A DNA stretch of 64,000 nucleotides, from assembly GCF_009931435.1 (NCBI RefSeq), contig NZ_CP043414.1; one strand, written 5' to 3'. The notes beneath the pieces were generated by a model that was given only the letters and a program-made list of their open reading frames with translations, had not been told where the DNA came from and made no database searches. Shown here one piece after another: positions 3,024 through 24,299 of the stretch (positions are counted from its first letter, which is position 1; each line of letters opens with the position of its first letter). The DNA is from Escherichia coli (lineage in GTDB: Bacteria; Pseudomonadota; Gammaproteobacteria; Enterobacterales; Enterobacteriaceae). Position numbers and translations under genes: made by a program.

Positions 3024-3977
3024 ATGATCGAAGTAAAACACCTGAAAACGCTACAAGCGTTGCGGAACTGCGGCTCACTCGCAGCCGCTGCGGCGACGTT
3101 GCATCAAACGCAATCCGCCCTGTCTCACCAGTTTAGCGATCTGGAACAACGCCTTGGCTTCCGGCTATTTGTGCGTAAAAGCCAGCCGCTTCGGTTTACA
3201 CCGCAGGGAGAAATCCTGTTGCAACTGGCGAATCAGGTGCTGCCGCAAATCAGCCAGGCACTGCAAGCCTGCAATGAACCGCAGCAGACGCGCCTGCGCA
3301 TTGCCATTGAGTGCCATAGCTGTATTCAGTGGCTGACGCCCGCGTTAGAAAATTTCCATAAGAACTGGCCGCAGGTGGAGATGGATTTTAAATCGGGCGT
3401 GACGTTTGACCCGCAGCCCGCGTTGCAGCAGGGTGAGCTGGATCTGGTGATGACCTCCGATATTCTGCCACGCAGTGGCCTGCATTATTCGCCGATGTTC
3501 GATTATGAAGTGCGTCTGGTGTTGGCACCTGACCATCCACTGGCGACAAAAACGCGAATCACGCCGGAAGATCTCGCCAGCGAGACGCTGTTAATTTATC
3601 CGGTGCAGCGTAGCCGACTGGATGTCTGGCGGCATTTTCTTCAGCCCGCAGGCGTTAGCCCGTCACTGAAAAGCGTCGATAACACCTTGTTGTTGATTCA
3701 GATGGTTGCCGCACGGATGGGCATCGCTGCGCTACCGCACTGGGTGGTGGAGAGTTTTGAACGCCAGGGTCTGGTGGTCACCAAAACCCTGGGCGAAGGC
3801 TTGTGGAGCCGACTGTACGCCGCCGTGCGCGATGGCGAGCAGCGTCAGCCGATTACAGAAGCGTTTATTCGCTCAGCGCGCAATCACGCCTGCGATCATC
3901 TGCCGTTTGTGAAGAGCGCGGAGCGACCCACTTACGATGCACCCACAGTGAGGCCAGGATCACCAGCGCGCCTGTAA
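3024..3977 (+). CDS. metR: LysR-family regulator of methionine biosynthesis
   Basis: 317 aa, N-terminus [36 protein letters not shown] (HTH of MetR); ATG at 3024. Confidence 0.95.
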
Positions 3978-15552: not shown

Positions 15553-16317
15553 ATGGCGCATCGGCTACTCATTGGTAAAGGAATGATCACCTTGAATCTC
15601 AAACGGATTTTTCTCGCCCTCACCTTACTTCCCTTGTTTGCTGTTGCCGCTGATGATTGCGCATTATCAGATCCGACACTGACCGTACAGGCGTATACCG
15701 TTAATCCTCAAACAGAGCGGGTGAAAATGTACTGGCAAAAAGCCAATGGCGAAGCGTGGGAAACGTTACATGCGCTGCTGACGGATATTAATAGTCAGGG
15801 TCAGGTGCAAATGGCGATGAACGGCAGCATATATGATGAAAGCTATGCGCCGCTCGGTTTGTACATCGAAAACGGTCAGCAGAAGGTGGCGTTAAATCTC
15901 GCTTCAGGTGAAGGGAATTTCTTTATCCGTCCTGGCGGTGTGTTTTATGTCGCGGGAGATAAAGTCGGCATCGTTCGTCTGGATGCCTTTAAAACCAGTA
16001 AAGAGATTCAGTTCGCGGTGCAGTCAGGGCCAATGTTGATGGAAAACGGCGTCATTAATCCGCGTATTCATCCCAACGTCGCCTCACGCAAAATTCGTAA
16101 CGGTGTTGGGATTAATAAACAAGGGAACGCCGTGTTTTTGTTGAGCCAGCAGGTGACAAATTTTTATGATTTTGCCTGTTATGCCAAAACGAAACTGAAC
16201 GTTGAGCAACTGCTTTATCTTGATGGCACGATTTCACATATGTATGTGAAAGGCGGGGCAATCCCGTGGCAACGCTATCCTTTTGTTACCATGATTTCCG
16301 TCGAGCAGAAAAGTTAA
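15553..16317 (+). CDS. yigE: secreted hypothetical protein (K-12 YigE-like; DUF2233 from memory)
   Basis: 254 aa with N-terminal signal peptide (LALTLLPLFAVAA); conserved position between corA and uvrD. Confidence 0.85.
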   Translation: MAHRLLIGKGMITLNLKRIFLALTLLPLFAVAADDCALSDPTLTVQAYTVNPQTERVKMYWQKANGEAWETLHALLTDINSQGQVQMAMNGSIYDESYAPLGLYIENGQQKVALNLASGEGNFFIRPGGVFYVAGDKVGIVRLDAFKTSKEIQFAVQSGPMLMENGVINPRIHPNVASRKIRNGVGINKQGNAVFLLSQQVTNFYDFACYAKTKLNVEQLLYLDGTISHMYVKGGAIPWQRYPFVTMISVEQKS

Positions 16318-16351
16318 AACAACCGTTTTGTGTCACTGAATATGGTGCAGA

Positions 16352-16456
16352 TGCCGGATGCGGCGCAAACGCCTTACCCGGCCTACATGACATTGCAATT
16401 TATTGAATCTACATGATTTTGTAGGCCGGATAAGGTGCGCAGCACCGCATCCGGCA
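16352..16456. repeat. BIME (two inverted REP units)
   Basis: gatgccggatgcggcgcaaacgccttacccggcctaca and its inverted partner tgtaggccggataaggtgcgcagcaccgcatccggc between the convergent yigE and uvrD genes. Confidence 0.6.
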
Positions 16457-16459
16457 ACG

Positions 16460-18622
16460 TTATACCGTCTCCAGCCGGGCGTAAGCCGCCACCAGCCATT
16501 TAATACCCTGGCCCTGAAATGCCACCTGCAAACGACTATGTTCGCCGCTGCCTTCCATATTGACGATGGTGCCTTCACCAAACTTGGCGTGGCGTACGCG
16601 CTGGCCGAGCTTGTAGCCGCTGTCGTTCTCGACCATCGGCGTACCCATCCGTTGATGGCTGACCGGGCGGCTTACCGTAGCGCGTAAACGCACCTCTTCC
16701 ACACACTCTTCCGGCAACTCGCCAATAAAACGCGACGGGCGATGGTAAACCTCTTTGCCATACAGACGCCGGGTTTCCGCGTAGGTCAGCGTCAGTTTCT
16801 GCATCGCGCGGGTTACGCCAACGTAGGCCAGACGGCGTTCTTCTTCCAGACGCCCGCCTTCATCCAGCGACATCTGGCTTGGGAACATCCCCTCTTCCAT
16901 ACCGACAATAAACACCTGCGGGAACTCCAGACCTTTCGCCGAGTGCAGCGTCATCAACTGCACCGCGTCCTGCCAGGTGTCCGCCTGTCCTTCACCCGCT
17001 TCCAGCGCGGCATGAGACAGAAACGCCTGTAACGGCATTAAATCTTCGTCTTCTTCGTTGTACGCAAACTGGCGCGTCGCCGTCACCAGTTCGTCTAAGT
17101 TTTCGATTCGCGTCTGGCCTTTTTCGCCCTTCTCTTGCTCGTACATGGTGCGCAGGCCGGAGTCTTTAATTACCCGATCAGTCTGTACATGCAGCGGCAT
17201 ATCGGCAGTTTCTTGCGCTAAGGCGTCGATCAGTTCCATAAACCGTTGCAAAGCGCTGGCAGCACGCCCGGCGAGCGCTTTTTCCTGCAATAATTCGCGG
17301 CACGCCTGCCAGAGTGTTAACTGGCGATCGCGCGATGTCTGACGTACCACGTCCAGCGTCCGGTCACCAATACCCCGCGTTGGCGTATTCACCACGCGCT
17401 CAAAGGCCGCGTCGTCGTTACGGTTGGCAATCAGGCGCAGATACGAGAGCGCATCTTTGATTTCCTGGCGTTCGAAGAAGCGCATCCCGCCATAAATACG
17501 GTACGGCATACTGGCTTGTAATAACGCCTCTTCCAGTACACGCGACTGGGCATTGCTACGATAGAGAATGGCGCACTCGGCGAGCGCCCCGCCGTTGTCC
17601 TGCCAGGTCTTGATGCGGTTAACCACAAAACGCGCTTCGTCGAGTTCGTTAAAAGCGCAATAGAGGGAAATCGGCTCACCGTCCGCGCCATCGGTCCACA
17701 ACTTTTTACCCAAACGCCCGTTGTTGTTTTCAATCAGGGCGTTCGCGGCGCTCAGGATATTGCTGGTAGAGCGGTAGTTCTGCTCCAGACGGATAGTTTC
17801 GGCACCGGGAAAATCATTGAGGAAACGCTGAATGTTCTCGACCTGCGCCCCGCGCCAGCCGTAGATTGACTGGTCGTCATCGCCAACGATCATCACTTTG
17901 CCAGTATCGCCTGCCAGCAGTCGTATCCACGCGTACTGAATGTTGTTGGTATCCTGGAATTCGTCCACCAGGATATTGGTAAAACGTTCGCGGTAGTGTT
18001 GCAGAATATGCGGCTTGTTAAGCCACAACTCGTGAGCGCGCAGCAGCAGCTCGGCGAAGTCCACCAGGCCCGCGCGGTCACACGCTTCCTGATACGCCTG
18101 ATACACCTTCTGCCAGGTCTGCTCCACCGGGTTACCGTAGCTTTGAATATGATGCGGACGCAGCCCTTCATCTTTCTGGCTGTTGATGTACCACATTGCC
18201 TGGCGCGGTGGCCACTGCTTCTCGTCGAGGTTCATAGCTTTGATCAGACGCTTAAGCAGGCGCAGCTGGTCTTCGCTGTCGAGGATCTGGAAATCCTGCG
18301 GCAGGTTGGCGTCCATATGGTGCGCACGCAGCAGACGGTGTGCCAGCCCGTGGAAAGTGCCGACCCACATACCGCCCTGGCTGGTGCCCATCAGTTGCCC
18401 GATACGATGACGCATTTCCGCCGCCGCTTTGTTGGTAAACGTCACCGCCATAATCGAGTACGGCGAGCAGTTTTCCACACTCATCAGCCAGGCGATACGA
18501 TGCACCAGTACGCGCGTCTTACCACTGCCCGCGCCCGCCAGCACCAGAAGGTTGCTGCGTGGCGCGGCCACCGCTTCGCGCTGTTTGTCATTAAGGCTGT
18601 CGAGCAGGTAAGAAACGTCCAT
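16460..18622 (-). CDS. uvrD: DNA helicase II (UvrD)
   Basis: Start trimmed to the ATG giving MDVSYLLDSLNDKQREAVAAP (720 aa); the longer 782 aa ORF starts from a TTG inside yigB. Walker A AGAGSGKT, UvrD/Rep helicase motifs. Start coordinate has +/-1 uncertainty from hand indexing. Confidence 0.95.
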   Translation of the reverse strand: MDVSYLLDSLNDKQREAVAAPRSNLLVLAGAGSGKTRVLVHRIAWLMSVENCSPYSIMAVTFTNKAAAEMRHRIGQLMGTSQGGMWVGTFHGLAHRLLRAHHMDANLPQDFQILDSEDQLRLLKRLIKAMNLDEKQWPPRQAMWYINSQKDEGLRPHHIQSYGNPVEQTWQKVYQAYQEACDRAGLVDFAELLLRAHELWLNKPHILQHYRERFTNILVDEFQDTNNIQYAWIRLLAGDTGKVMIVGDDDQSIYGWRGAQVENIQRFLNDFPGAETIRLEQNYRSTSNILSAANALIENNNGRLGKKLWTDGADGEPISLYCAFNELDEARFVVNRIKTWQDNGGALAECAILYRSNAQSRVLEEALLQASMPYRIYGGMRFFERQEIKDALSYLRLIANRNDDAAFERVVNTPTRGIGDRTLDVVRQTSRDRQLTLWQACRELLQEKALAGRAASALQRFMELIDALAQETADMPLHVQTDRVIKDSGLRTMYEQEKGEKGQTRIENLDELVTATRQFAYNEEDEDLMPLQAFLSHAALEAGEGQADTWQDAVQLMTLHSAKGLEFPQVFIVGMEEGMFPSQMSLDEGGRLEEERRLAYVGVTRAMQKLTLTYAETRRLYGKEVYHRPSRFIGELPEECVEEVRLRATVSRPVSHQRMGTPMVENDSGYKLGQRVRHAKFGEGTIVNMEGSGEHSRLQVAFQGQGIKWLVAAYARLETV

Positions 18623-18680
18623 TGGCACCGCCGCGTAAAAATAGGTTGGGCGGAGAAGCGCAACGCCCTCCGCCAAAAAG

Positions 18681-18696
18681 CTGGGTATATATACAG
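18681..18696 (-). promoter_or_regulatory. LexA (SOS) box of the uvrD promoter
   Basis: Minus strand reads CTGTATATATACCCAG, a CTGT-N8-ACAG-type SOS box, about 60 bp upstream of the uvrD start and inside the yigB 3' coding end. Confidence 0.5.
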
Positions 18697-18705
18697 ATTT
18701 GCTGA

Positions 18706-19422
18706 TTATATCAGCGAGGTCAGAGATGCCAACCGGGAAATTTCCAGATGCGGCAGTAAACGGCTGTCCCAGGTTTGCATCAGATCGCCATTTTCCGGTC
18801 TGATCCAACAGGCCTGCATTCCGCTGCGAATTGCCCCACCCACGTCAGTGGTGAGATCGTCCCCGACATGTAAGATCTCGCCGATCGGCACGTTGAGTTT
18901 TTCCGCCGCCAGGAAGTACATATCGCTGAACGGTTTTGAGCGCCCGTGCGGGCCAGCGCGCAACACAAACTCAAAATAATCCCCCAAACCAAACAGCTCC
19001 GGCTGGGCGTTACCGTTGGTGATCGCCACCAGCGGCCATTTCTTCGCCAGCTGTTTTAAGGTGTCGTGCGTTTGCTGCGGAACGTCGATCCGGCTACGCC
19101 ATTTGGCAAAGTTGATCATTGCCGCGTGTGCGCCTGCACTGGCTTCTTCTGCGCTCAGCCCGGCGTCGAGCATCGCTTGTTCTATTGAGCGAAAACGCCA
19201 GCGCGTCACATCATGATAAATCTCGGGTTCCGCTTCCCGTACCGCCTGACGCAGACGTTGCAGATCTTCATTCTGGAAGCTGCGCAGCGCCGGATGGTAA
19301 TTTTGCACAAAGGTAAGCGCCTCCTGCTCAGTGCGCAAAATCACCGGACGGTTATCGTAAAGGGTATCATCCAGGTCAAAGGTGAGCGCCGAGATGCGCC
19401 CCAAAGGCCGGTAAAAACGCAT
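18706..19422 (-). CDS. yigB: HAD-family FMN/5-amino-6-(5-phospho-D-ribitylamino)uracil phosphatase
   Basis: 238 aa, HAD motif [12 protein letters not shown] near the N-terminus; stop verified at 18706. Confidence 0.9.
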
Positions 19423-20318
19423 TATTTCCCCCGTTTGGCGCGTGGATGCGCCGCATCGTACACCGAGGCAAGGTGTTGAAAATCAAGATGAGTATAGATT
19501 TGCGTGGTAGAGAGATTGGCATGACCCAGCAGCTCCTGCACACCACGAAGATCACCGCTCGACTCCAGCATATGCGTAGCGAACGAGTGACGTAATTTAT
19601 GCGGGTGAACGTGATTATTCAGCCCTTGTTTTATGCCCCATTCGGCAAAGCGTTTCTGCACATTACGCGCGGAGATACGCTTGCCCAGTTTCGACAGAAA
19701 AAGCGCGTCGTCTTCGCTGCCAAACAGGTCGCGCAAATCAAGCCAGTGCTCAATCCACGCTACAGCGTTGCGACCAATCGGCAGGCGACGCTCTTTGCTG
19801 CCTTTCCCCATCACCCACACTTCACCGGACTCCAGGTCGAGGTGTTTGATATCGAGCCCCACCAGTTCGGAAAGACGCAGACCCGCGCCGTACATCACTT
19901 CCAGCATTGCCCGATCGCGCACGGCAAGGGGATCGTTGATATCAATATCCAGCAGCCGATTTATATCATCGACGTCGATATTTTTCGGCAGATGACGCGG
20001 CGCTTTCGGTGCCGAAACACCTTTCGCCGGGTTGGCTTTAAGTTCGTTCTGGCTGACCAACCAGTCAAAAAAGCTACGTAGCGCAGAGAGGCGTAATGCG
20101 AGGCTTGCCGCGCCCAGCCCTTTACGGCGACTGCGTACAGCGAAATTGCGCACCATCGCCGCATCACATTGCTGCCAGCTTTGCAGGCCGTTTTCGCTGG
20201 CAAAATTGATGATCGCCTCAAGTTGGCGCTGGTAGTTAAGCAGGGTTATCGGGCTAAGCTGACGCTCCACGCTCAGATAACGTAGGTAGCGTTCTACATC
20301 GGTGTGTAAATCGGTCAT
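19422..20318 (-). CDS. xerC: tyrosine site-specific recombinase XerC (chromosome dimer resolution)
   Basis: 298 aa; catalytic R..HxxR..Y residues near the C-terminus ([10 protein letters not shown] ... TQIYTHL); sits in the dapF-yigA-xerC-yigB operon with short gene overlaps. Confidence 0.95.
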
Positions 20319-21022
20319 ACGCGTTCAATCCAACGCTCCAGAAGCTCCGGCAACATCAGCGCAATTTCATGAAGTAACTCCGTTCCCTGCCCTTGTTGAT
20401 AGTGACTGGCATCGCGGCTGGTGAACAGCACGACACCCAAATCAGCATCGCTTCCCAGCATCGACATCGCCACCGATCCCACCGCTTTCGCTTCCGGTAG
20501 CACCACCAGCAGCTCCGGTCCGTTAAGCGGCCCAAGATAGTGCTGTTCCTGCCCCAGACGCTGAATACGCAGCGGTTCGAAAGACTGACGGCTTAATGCG
20601 AGATGAGTGTGGTTCGACGGCGCACCTAAGCGCCAGCGATCCGGAAACAGGCGCAGACTCGCACCTGCCAGACCGAGATCGCGCGCCCAGCGGTGAAAAC
20701 GCATCAGCATATCGTCGAGACTGCTGGCGGCGGTGAGACTACGCTGCAGGTAAAGTAAGCGATAGAACAAGCCTTCGTTGGCGATAGCCTGTTCCATCAA
20801 CAGCGCCATGTTCTCTTCCAGAACATGAATATGATGACGTGCGCGGGCCATGTGCCACTCGACCAACGAAACGGTGCCGCGTACCGGATGCGGCACACGT
20901 ATCGCTTCTACTGCGCGCGCATTGCGGATAAAAAACTCAGGATTTTTAATCAGATAATCGACAACCGCCCGGTCATCTAGCTCCGTGAGTGTTTCCTGTA
21001 GTTCTTCCCCTGGTTGCTTCAT
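20315..21022 (-). CDS. yigA: DUF484-family protein YigA
   Basis: 235 aa; 4-nt overlaps with dapF upstream and xerC downstream. Confidence 0.88.
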
Positions 21023-21843
21023 AGATGAATAAATCCGTCGTAGACATGTACCGCCGGCCCCGTCATATATAAGGGGTGACCCGGACCTTTCCAGGCGATA
21101 TCAAGACGACCGCCGGGGAGTTCCACGCGTACTTCTTCGGCCAGCAAACCTTGCTGAATCCCTACCGCCACCGCCGCACACGCGCCGCTGCCGCAGGCCT
21201 GGGTTTCTCCTGCCCCACGCTCATAAACGCGTAAACGAATATGCTCGCGCTTAACCACTTGCATAAAACCGATATTAGCGCGCTCCGGAAAACGTTCGTG
21301 GCTTTCCAGAACAGGACCAAGCGTTTCTACCGCTGCAGTATCGACATCATCAACCTGAATCACGCAGTGCGGATTTCCCATCGACACCACGCCGCATAAG
21401 ATTGTCTGCTCGGCGGCGCGCATAATATAGGTCTTTTCCGCTTTGTTAGCGCGAAATGGCACGGCAGAAGGTTCGAAGTTGGGTTCGCCCATATTGACGC
21501 GCACCAGATCGTCATCGGTGACGGTCAGAACCATCCGCCCGTTGGCAGTACTGACGCGGATATCGCGCTTATTGGTCAGCCCTTTCAGACGCACAAAACG
21601 GGCAAAGCAGCGTGCGCCGTTGCCGCACTGCGCCACTTCACTGCCATCAGCATTGAAAATGCGATAGTGAAAATCCAGTTCCGGATCATACGGTGGCTCA
21701 ACCACCAGCAGTTGGTCAAACCCTATCCCCAGGTGCCGATCCGCCAGGCGACGAATCAGTTCTGGTGAAAAAAAGACATTCTGCGTTACCGCGTCGACGA
21801 CCATAAAATCGTTGCCAAGGCCATGCATTTTCGAGAACTGCAT
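21019..21843 (-). CDS. dapF: diaminopimelate epimerase
   Basis: Start at the second ATG ([17 protein letters not shown]), 274 aa; active-site Cys motifs (GNGARC, CGSGACA). Confidence 0.95.
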
Positions 21844-21879
21844 CATTTACTCCAATCACGCGGGTACAGAAACTGACTT

Positions 21880-22083
21880 TTAGTAATTCACCTGGGATGG
21901 GCCATCGCCAGTGGCGCGGTCGTTTTTATCCGGCACCGTGGATTGCGTTTGCGTCTCTACCGGTTTGGTCGGTGGCGGTGCGTTTTTATCTGCAGGCGGG
22001 AAATAGAGCGGACCTTTCAGACCGCAGCCCGTCAGGCTGAAGAGAGTAAGTAATACAGTGAGTGCCTTAAACACGTTTTTCAT
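21880..22083 (-). CDS. lptM: small lipoprotein LptM (YifL)
   Basis: 67 aa; lipobox LTGC in MKNVFKALTVLLTLFSLTGC, followed by a Pro-rich tail. Confidence 0.85.
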   Translation of the reverse strand: MKNVFKALTVLLTLFSLTGCGLKGPLYFPPADKNAPPPTKPVETQTQSTVPDKNDRATGDGPSQVNY

Positions 22084-22271
22084 TATGGATTGCCTGTAAA
22101 GTTCATCGCTTTCTGCTTTCTATCATCGCAGGAGAAGACGTAAAAGCAAGCGTTTAGCGACTCTTTATGAAGTCTGAAAAATGAGGAATTGCTGCGAGTA
22201 TAACGCTTACACGTGGGGATTTATGTTTTGCTGATAGTTTCGTGATCGGCACCTCGCGCCAGGATGGCTTT

Positions 22272-24299
22272 ATGCACTATCGCAATGTGGTTTGTTTGTT
22301 GTCTTTTTTAGTTCCGTCAGCGTGGGGATGCTCGCTCGGTGAACCTGATCATAATATTTACCAGAAACAGGGAAAAGGCGTGGTATACCTGCGCCCTAAT
22401 GAAGAGACAAATCTTTCGTTACCGGAAGTAAATTACCAGCGACTGCGTCGTTTACCTGATTTATTCATTGTTCCTGACACCCAGGACGATGGGGAAAAAG
22501 AACCGCCGTTAAACGACCTTACCACCGATTATATTGATCAGGGCGCATGGGCCTGGTATCCAAATTATGCTTACTTTAGCGATGGCCGTTTTGTTATTTA
22601 TGCGGGCAAGATTGTACAAAATCCATCTGGTTATCCACCGGTCGATGTAGCCTCGTTCCATTCATGGGGCGATTTTGCCGTCGATAAAAACAGCATTTAT
22701 TACAAAGGCCAACGGACAGATGAAAATGGCGGCAAGCAACGCGTCGATGAAAAAACGCTGCGCAAAGTAGGATTAGGTAGCCGTTGGATGCCTGATCGGC
22801 TGGGATTGGTGCTACGTGACGCGCATTTTCTTTATATCGATGGGCACCGTTTTGATAACCCAGAGAGTTTTTCCGTGATCGCGCAAAAATCCTGGGGTCA
22901 ACAAGGGAAATTCGCTTCAACGTTTTTTCCCTGCATTGCCTACCCCTTTGGCCCGTGGGATATGCTTACCCGCACACGAACAAAGTTGCTGATCAATGGA
23001 GAGCAACTGGATGCAGATCCGGACAATTTTTCTGTCGTTCGCTGGATGCCCGGCACCCTGTTTAGCTGGCGTGATAAACACGGCGAGCATCGTAAAGTCA
23101 TTGATCAGGTTCGTTTGGCAAGGAATGAAGATATATCCCGGCAATGTGACAACTTTACGCTGTTAGAAAAAAAGGTGTTCTGGCGCAAGGGGCCAGATTG
23201 TGAGCAGGAAGAATTACCCAGTCTCGACCCGGAGCAGTTTCACCCGATCAGTGACATCGTGGCGCAGTATCAGGACAAGTTGTATGCAATCAGTAAGACC
23301 CCCTTCGGTGAAAATCAGTTGGAGATCATCACCCTGGATAACCCGAATCTGATCATCAATAAACGTTTTAATGCCGGAAGGCATCATGGCTATTTAATCA
23401 CCCGATCAACAAATTGGGACGGACATGAGAAAGACGGTTTACAGGTGTTTGAATCCGTTGGCCCACTGATACTGCTGGACTACCGTGTGCCGAATGAAGC
23501 AGATGCACACCGTGGCAATAACCCGCATTACAAAAAATGGTTTGCTCGCGACGATCGTTACGTTTATGCATTCGATGGTGCGCAGCTTTGGCGTTACCCT
23601 ACGCAATATCCCAAAGCGGCACGTATCAAAGCCGCTAAAGACGACTGGCTGAACGTCAGCCTTAGCCAATTGGACGGTGAGATAATGAAAGATGGCTCAT
23701 TTACTCCCACTGGCATCAAGCACACATCCTCTTTAAAACCCGCCAAGGCATACGAAGATGGGGACAATGAATCTTCATTTATCGTAAATAAATCGGGAGT
23801 AGGCTGGCGAAAAGCGCTTTCACCCGACCTGCAATGGAGTGAGTGGCATTACCTGGAAGGCATTTATCCAAAAAAGTTACATCTGATTACCGAACGTATT
23901 GCACAGTACAAAAACCAACTCTACGTCGTCAGGCGCTCGCATTTTGGAGAAGATCGGCTAGAAATCATAGAGTTGGAGTCATCTTTGCCCATCAAAAATA
24001 AACCGATAAATACGGGCAAGGAGCGTCATTACTTTCTGCAAAGTACCCGACAAAAACAGGATGTGCAGGTATTCACCAGCAGCGGTGCGCTGATAGCAAC
24101 GGAGCGCTTTGCTTATGACGATAGCTATGTCTACACCTGGATTGACGATCAGCTTTATCGCACACCCTCCCCCTGCCCAGCGAAAACATACGTCAGAGAA
24201 AAGAATGTCCGTGAAATTCATAACAGCGACATTATTATTCCGGTGACGGAGGAATCGTGCCGGAACGCAGCAGCAGACGGGCAAACTTTGAAGCCCTGA
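22272..24299 (+). CDS. hypothetical exported repeat protein, DKNYY-like motifs (accessory)
   Basis: Longest ORF starts at GTG 22242; ATG at 22272 has an AGGA SD about 8 nt upstream and gives signal peptide MHYRNVVCLLSFLVPSAWG followed by Cys. Internal duplication (QYQDKLYAISKTPFGENQLEIITLD versus QYKNQLYVVRRSHFGEDRLEIIELE). Motif DKNSIYYKG. Start choice is uncertain. Confidence 0.65.
   Translation: MHYRNVVCLLSFLVPSAWGCSLGEPDHNIYQKQGKGVVYLRPNEETNLSLPEVNYQRLRRLPDLFIVPDTQDDGEKEPPLNDLTTDYIDQGAWAWYPNYAYFSDGRFVIYAGKIVQNPSGYPPVDVASFHSWGDFAVDKNSIYYKGQRTDENGGKQRVDEKTLRKVGLGSRWMPDRLGLVLRDAHFLYIDGHRFDNPESFSVIAQKSWGQQGKFASTFFPCIAYPFGPWDMLTRTRTKLLINGEQLDADPDNFSVVRWMPGTLFSWRDKHGEHRKVIDQVRLARNEDISRQCDNFTLLEKKVFWRKGPDCEQEELPSLDPEQFHPISDIVAQYQDKLYAISKTPFGENQLEIITLDNPNLIINKRFNAGRHHGYLITRSTNWDGHEKDGLQVFESVGPLILLDYRVPNEADAHRGNNPHYKKWFARDDRYVYAFDGAQLWRYPTQYPKAARIKAAKDDWLNVSLSQLDGEIMKDGSFTPTGIKHTSSLKPAKAYEDGDNESSFIVNKSGVGWRKALSPDLQWSEWHYLEGIYPKKLHLITERIAQYKNQLYVVRRSHFGEDRLEIIELESSLPIKNKPINTGKERHYFLQSTRQKQDVQVFTSSGALIATERFAYDDSYVYTWIDDQLYRTPSPCPAKTYVREKNVREIHNSDIIIPVTEESCRNAAADGQTLKP

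Follow-up and report, generated by a model that had tools for sequence, protein, structure and literature searches.

The DNA helicase II gene uvrD is a textbook SOS gene with a 2- to 5-fold induction. Going by the titles of their papers, its regulation by LexA within the SOS response was reportedly described in 1983 both by Easton & Kushner and by Pang & Walker. The uvrD SOS box is already known, having been described since 1983, and the Escherichia coli strain analyzed here carries it unchanged from K-12.

The uvrD box has been assigned a heterology index (HI) of 8.5 (Courcelle et al. 2001, tabulated in PMC11228462), and uvrD is listed among the confirmed SOS genes (PMC6590174). Induction was about 2-fold under AZT-type replication stress (PMC11228462), and after ciprofloxacin it reached log2 2.2 for the mRNA and log2 1.4 for the protein (PMC11002266). 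In GFP reporter assays, the uvrD promoter was UV-inducible and behaved as an 'early' SOS promoter (PMC5999292). In Salmonella, a published study gives LexA-dependent regulation of uvrD by reference and in a table, and describes heterogeneity in basal uvrD expression that is independent of LexA.

We compared this locus with the K-12 uvrD promoter, as the earlier note on this DNA had proposed. The window, meaning the whole stretch of 64,000 nt that was analyzed, contains a 191-nt segment (18590-18780) that was found to be 100% identical to both K-12 MG1655 and ATCC 11775. This segment includes the -35 and -10 hexamers, the box, the leader hairpin and the start codon, and the flanking genes and the spacer are alike as well. 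The comparison revealed no difference within the element, and what sets the strain apart from K-12 is confined to other parts of the window, such as an extra 685-aa open reading frame (ORF) between lptM and cyaY. Given the identity over 191 nt, the published K-12 findings apply directly to this strain. The element is also nearly invariant in the species: a 126-nt segment was at least 99% identical in 5,401 of 5,425 complete E. coli genomes, and the 40 nt over the -10 hexamer and the LexA box were identical in 5,412 of them.

Like other gammaproteobacterial LexA operators (TACTG(TA)5CAGTA; recA, uvrA, uvrB, lexA), the uvrD operator has the form CTG-N10-CAG with an A/T-rich spacer and is located beside or over a sigma-70 promoter. 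It differs from them in being located downstream of the -10 hexamer, rather than over the -35 or the -10, and in being paired with a near-consensus extended -10 promoter. It is also weaker than the tight operators of umuDC, sulA, and recN.

The LexA operator in the yigB-uvrD spacer

Read directly, positions 18681-18696 are CTGGGTATATATACAG on the plus strand and, from 18696 to 18681, CTGTATATATACCCAG on the minus strand, as the earlier note had stated. The identification of this sequence as the uvrD SOS box was also correct, as it is the same as the K-12 uvrD box printed in PMC3009722. The core has the invariant trinucleotides CTG-N10-CAG and an A/T-rich, (TA)n-like spacer. Its left half-site is perfect, its right half-site has two mismatches, and the flanks are poor. 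The description of the site as near-consensus thus holds for the 16-mer core, while the operator as a whole scores as only middling in strength.

Table 1 Features of the yigB-uvrD region (window coordinates).
Feature	Position	Strand	Basis
uvrD, DNA helicase II, 720 aa	16460..18622	-	NCBIfam NF008743, 1422 bits, full length; RefSeq
Putative Shine-Dalgarno GGCGG, 5 nt before the uvrD ATG, in a conserved GGCGGTGCCAATG block	18628..18632	-	sequence and cross-species conservation; inferred
Leader stem-loop GGCGGAGGGCG...CGCTTCTCCGCC, REP-like	18649..18674	-	fold; RNA form GGCGGAGGGCG...CGCUUCUCCGCC
20-nt LexA operator ATCTGTATATATACCCAGCT	18679..18698	-	heterology-index scoring
LexA (SOS) box core CTGTATATATACCCAG	18681..18696	-	read directly; same as the K-12 uvrD box of PMC3009722 and MG1655 DNA
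Extended -10 TGATATAAT	18705..18713	-	promoter scan, 11/12 plus TG
yigB stop TAA, within the uvrD -10 hexamer	18706..18708	-	ORF, profile, RefSeq
-35 hexamer TTGGCA	18727..18732	-	yigB codons Leu(-8)-Ala(-7), context CGG-TTG-GCA-TCT; promoter scan
yigB, HAD phosphatase, 238 aa	18706..19422	-	NCBIfam NF008018 equivalog, 495.6 bits, residues 1-238 of 238; RefSeq

The uvrD ATG (18622) is 58 nt downstream of the end of the box, close to the 'about 60 bp' given earlier. On the other side, the 16-mer starts 9 nt past the final base of the yigB stop codon, with TCAGCAAAT in between, and is located wholly within the 83-nt intergenic spacer. The earlier note had instead placed the box inside yigB codons, which would make it an operator shaped by both coding and LexA-binding constraints. 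An uninterrupted ORF in the uvrD frame (16460..18808) in the mechanical ORF list does span the box, and the uvrD promoter is truly inside yigB, which makes promoter and box easy to conflate. However, the yigB reading frame ends with CTG ATA TAA, the stop codon at 18708-18706 comes 9 nt before the box, and the match to the YigB profile extends from end to end (1-238 of 238). The RefSeq annotations of ATCC 11775 and K-12 MG1655 have the same yigB and uvrD ends and the same 83-nt spacer, and the 16-mer core begins beyond the stop codon in all 64 species with uvrD downstream of yigB that are described below. A box embedded in yigB codons was ruled out by the reading frame, and we regard an operator under such double constraint as extremely improbable. 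As the operator is outside the yigB coding sequence, no coding constraint acts on it.

We scored LexA sites with the heterology index of Berg-von Hippel/Lewis, using a matrix built from 18 K-12 LexA boxes (PMC3009722 Table 4). The uvrD box was scored leave-one-out, with a matrix made from the 17 other validated K-12 boxes. The 20-mer operator had an HI of 7.82, which ranked 11 of 18 when each validated box was scored leave-one-out. The heterology-index check suggested in the earlier note thus placed the site inside the range of validated sites. This was the top LexA-type site on both strands of the 64-kb window (runner-up 10.87), and its score was matched in 0 of 100 Markov-1 random 64-kb sequences, whose best was 8.06 and whose median was 11.76. 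A looser search for CTGT-N8-ACAG with one mismatch found no enrichment in the window (20 found, 17.3 expected). This loose count was uninformative, and the position-specific index was therefore used instead.

We then compared the region across species by scanning for YigB in one genome per species. This yielded 80 loci, from Escherichia to Vibrio, with Salmonella not among them. The uvrD gene directly follows yigB in 64 of the 80 loci (Enterobacterales plus Gilliamella and Zophobihabitans) and does not in the 16 Vibrionaceae loci. The best LexA-type site from the yigB 3' end to the uvrD start had an HI of 12.5 or lower in 61 of the 64 species (median 8.98), compared with only 4 of 256 upstream control segments of the same size (median 19.16). 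An exact CTG-N10-CAG starting no more than about 25 nt past the stop codon was present in 55 of 64 species, compared with none of the 16 Vibrionaceae loci. These counts indicate a LexA box at the same place in about 60 species of Enterobacterales and Orbales. The core starts 1-15 nt past the yigB stop codon in nearly all of the 64 species and inside codons in none. The distance from the box to the uvrD ATG ranged from 11 to 181 nt, while the distance to the -10 hexamer and stop codon was nearly fixed. This suggests that the box is tied to the promoter and not to the start codon. The Salmonella uvrD box has been published as being 105 bp from the ATG with an HI of 11.48, a position not reconciled with the layout in the other genera.

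The box could in principle be a functionless chance palindrome in an A/T-rich spacer, in line with CTGT-N8-ACAG with one mismatch being just as common in shuffled sequences. However, the box has the best HI in the window, equalled in none of 100 random sequences. It is invariant in E. coli and is kept in about 60 species, compared with 4 of 256 control segments, and SOS induction of uvrD has been published (PMC11228462, PMC11002266, PMC5999292). We therefore give a chance origin practically no weight. Taken together, the 100% identity with K-12, the HI, the conservation and the literature identify the site, with a probability of about 93%, as the canonical LexA operator of the uvrD promoter. 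The middling strength of the operator and the LexA-independent basal heterogeneity in Salmonella speak against this reading.

The runner-up among the LexA-type sites of the window (HI 10.87) is TACTGTATATTCCTCAAGCG at 2973-2992 on the plus strand, where only the left half-site is perfect. This site precedes the metR ATG by about 30-50 nt in the spacer between the divergent genes metE and metR, and is probably a chance match.

The uvrD promoter and the 3' end of yigB

We scanned positions 18400-19000 for sigma-70-type promoters. This search uncovered one site, on the minus strand, composed of TTGGCA, a 16-nt spacer and TATAAT, with 11 of 12 matches plus the TG of an extended -10; the expectation from shuffles was 0.2 sites. 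In the -10 hexamer (18710-18705), TA comes from ATA, the last yigB codon, TAA is the stop codon and the final T is the first intergenic base; the LexA core begins 8 nt past the hexamer. The overlap with the end of yigB involves the uvrD promoter and not the LexA operator. The superimposed coding and regulatory constraint that the earlier note had proposed thus fails for the operator, which is intergenic, and stands for the promoter, which is located in the last 9 yigB codons and has the yigB stop codon in its -10. A literature search on the yigB-uvrD promoter found nothing about this overlap. At the usual distance of 7 nt after the -10, transcription of uvrD is predicted to start at an A near 18698, about 3,997,907 in K-12. 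This would place the LexA 20-mer at about +1 to +20 and give a leader of about 76 nt.

Other promoters are located in the 3' end of a co-directional upstream gene, and the uvrD promoter resembles them in having its -35 and -10 in yigB codons and the stop codon, with conservation at synonymous sites. It differs from them in that its -10 hexamer contains the stop codon, which forces a rare NTA last codon. A TATAAT straddling the yigB stop codon was found in 59 of the 64 species with uvrD downstream and in none of the 16 without it, and 56 of the 64 have a -35-like hexamer at 16-nt spacing. In 62 of the 64 species, from two orders, yigB ends with the stop codon TAA preceded by an NTA codon (ATA 36, TTA 12, CTA 10, GTA 4). 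All four codons are rare, and they encode different residues (Ile, Leu, Val). The 16 loci without uvrD downstream have mixed stop codons (TAA 6, TAG 6, TGA 4) and diverse last codons.

We next analyzed codon-level entropy in 57 aligned yigB tails. Ordinary four-fold sites had a third-position entropy of about 1.7-1.9 bits. The value fell to 0.13 bits at Leu(-8), encoded by TTG in 56 of 57 tails while the other leucines of the tail mix CTG, TTG, and TTA. It was 0.95 bits at Ala(-7), where only GCA or GCT occurs, and 0 bits both at Leu(-2), which carries the invariant G of the extended -10, and at the last codon. The promoter hexamers thus leave a clear and deeply conserved codon-level footprint in yigB. 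The overlap imposes not only the rare last codons but also a fixed TTG leucine across two bacterial orders. Here the codons used by one gene are shaped by the promoter of the next, which we find neat rather than surprising. It also has a practical side, as synonymous edits or deletions at the 3' end of yigB would disturb uvrD expression, and recoding or deleting yigB calls for caution.

A tract just upstream of the -35, GAAATTT (18738-18744, minus strand; yigB codons Glu(-12)-Ile(-11)), is frozen as well. ATT encodes Ile(-11) in 56 of 57 species, and the tract is located at about -46 to -40 from the predicted start. It may serve the uvrD promoter as an A/T-rich, UP-element-like sequence.

Two species depart from the common layout. 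In Serratia oryzae (L036, ~3200-3410), an insertion of about 110 nt, ERIC/MITE-like by eye only, has its site precisely at the TA that belongs to the -10 hexamer and stop codon; the insertion lengthens YigB, which now ends at TGA after 243 aa, and its far end recreates GGGTATAAT just before the LexA box. In Proteus penneri (L061, ~3300-3360), yigB ends with GTT TAA and has no TATAAT. The LexA box is located 101 nt further downstream, 28 nt from the uvrD ATG, and apparently overlaps a -10-like TATATA of its own; promoter and operator have apparently been relocated together. As both displaced boxes are beside new promoter-like sequence near uvrD, the primary partner of the box would be the uvrD promoter.

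These features are consistent with the following mechanism. The near-consensus sigma-70 promoter in the last yigB codons would drive uvrD from a start near 18698. A LexA dimer bound at about +1 to +20 would hinder open-complex formation or promoter escape, and after DNA damage RecA-stimulated cleavage of LexA would relieve the repression. A strong promoter with a middling operator downstream of its -10 would be expected to give high basal uvrD expression and few-fold SOS induction; the strength and placement of the operator, together with the strong promoter, fit a high basal level and a low induction ratio.

Transcription from the dapF-yigA-xerC-yigB operon

The yigB gene is the last gene of a co-directional dapF-yigA-xerC-yigB cluster, and the genes further upstream on the minus strand are xerC, yigA, dapF, and lptM. 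The earlier note had pointed out that read-through from this operon into uvrD would pass through the LexA site. The geometry bears this out, as the cluster and uvrD point in the same direction and a scan of that strand showed nothing resembling a terminator between the yigB stop codon and the box. Polymerases arriving from upstream would therefore have to cross the embedded promoter and the operator.

This raises the question of whether LexA at the box acts mainly or additionally as a roadblock to read-through from dapF-yigA-xerC-yigB, in which case DNA damage would open both the promoter and the read-through path. The shared direction of the genes and the lack of a terminator-like site before the box are consistent with this, as is the position of the first hairpin, which comes only after the box. 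However, in Serratia oryzae and Proteus penneri the box follows the uvrD promoter and not the end of the operon. We consider a roadblock unlikely, though it is compatible with the box being the canonical operator of the uvrD promoter. To a similarly low degree, LexA may gate two inputs into uvrD at once, its own promoter and dapF-xerC-yigB read-through. If LexA gates the read-through too, expression downstream of the XerC recombinase operon would be coupled to the SOS state.

At the dapF/yigA, yigA/xerC and xerC/yigB junctions, 1-4 nt are shared between the stop codon of one gene and the start codon of the next (19422, 20315-20318 and 21019-21022, minus strand). This suggests translational coupling along an operon running into the uvrD promoter. 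Further upstream, the 685-aa ORF between lptM and cyaY (22242-24299, plus strand) has no Pfam match. The lptM-cyaY interval is only about 460 nt in K-12 and holds a DKNYY-family pseudogene and a hypothetical gene in ATCC 11775; from this comparison it looks to be a strain-variable islet.

The stem-loop of the uvrD leader

The predicted uvrD leader resembles leader attenuators, intrinsic terminators and REP elements in having a G+C-rich stem-loop followed by a T-run and in its similarity to REP sequence. It differs from leader attenuators and intrinsic terminators in the position of the T-run: TTTTT (18641-18637) starts 7 nt past the stem, no T-run follows the stem directly, and the scanner called no canonical intrinsic terminator on the minus strand of the leader. 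The E. coli leader did not fold more stably than shuffled sequences (whole-leader z = -0.11). An Rfam scan of 16000-23000 found no family in the uvrD leader, and neither a leader peptide nor a known riboswitch family was found there.

Across species, most of those with leaders of at least 40 nt have a stem-loop in the corresponding position. These stem-loops are unrelated in sequence and often include the final bases of the box in their pairing; species with very short leaders have no hairpin. The folds showed a modest trend towards stability, with a median z of -1.12 and 20 of 57 leaders below -1.5.

We also compared the stem-loop with REP sequences. Its tail CTTCTCCGCCCAAC has 3 mismatches to the REP tail CTTATCCGGCCTAC, and its best local alignment with the REP units of the window scored 12, a value reached by 4 of 500 shuffles. 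The K-12 annotation has no repeat feature in the yigB-uvrD spacer. Clearer REP-like sequences were found at the same place in Citrobacter, Pluralibacter, and Pseudocitrobacter (loci L005, L013, L014, L023). On this evidence, the stem-loop looks like a decayed REP unit.

By sequence, the stem-loop is a candidate attenuator of uvrD transcripts, a candidate terminator of yigB read-through, or both. It might also be only a decayed REP unit and/or the terminator at which the yigB operon ends, and play no part in the regulation of uvrD. Such a passive role would agree with the resemblance to REP units in the window and in related genera, with a fold no better than that of shuffles and with the hairpin-free species with short leaders. 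Against it stands the recurrence of stem-loops of unrelated sequence right after the box in most genera. A further argument against it comes from the 1983 paper by Easton & Kushner (Nucleic Acids Res 11:8625), which, by its title, is said to attribute uvrD control to regulation 'by attenuation'. We hold a passive role to be possible but doubtful. The likeliest role of the stem-loop appears to be partial termination, both of transcripts from the uvrD promoter and of yigB read-through, and a partial terminator agrees with what that title reportedly states. The stem-loop of the 76-nt leader, with its displaced T-run, would then probably stop a part of both kinds of transcripts.

In the available text of the Term-seq supplements of PMC7815308, no entry for uvrD or yigB was found. 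A genomic-SELEX peak of PdhR has been reported in the K-12 yigB-uvrD spacer, without a recognisable PdhR motif (PMC7660256). This peak (K-12 3,997,946) corresponds to about position 18659 of the window, on the leader hairpin.

At the other end of uvrD, yigE (phosphodiester glycosidase family; 15553-16460) directly adjoins the gene, as in K-12. ATCC 11775 has an extra gene of the SAM hydroxide adenosyltransferase family between yigE and uvrD, despite its identical uvrD-yigB region. A cluster of genuine REP units is located between the uvrD stop codon and yigE (16332-16497), with sub-threshold matches to the REP-derived Rfam family naRNA4 on both strands.
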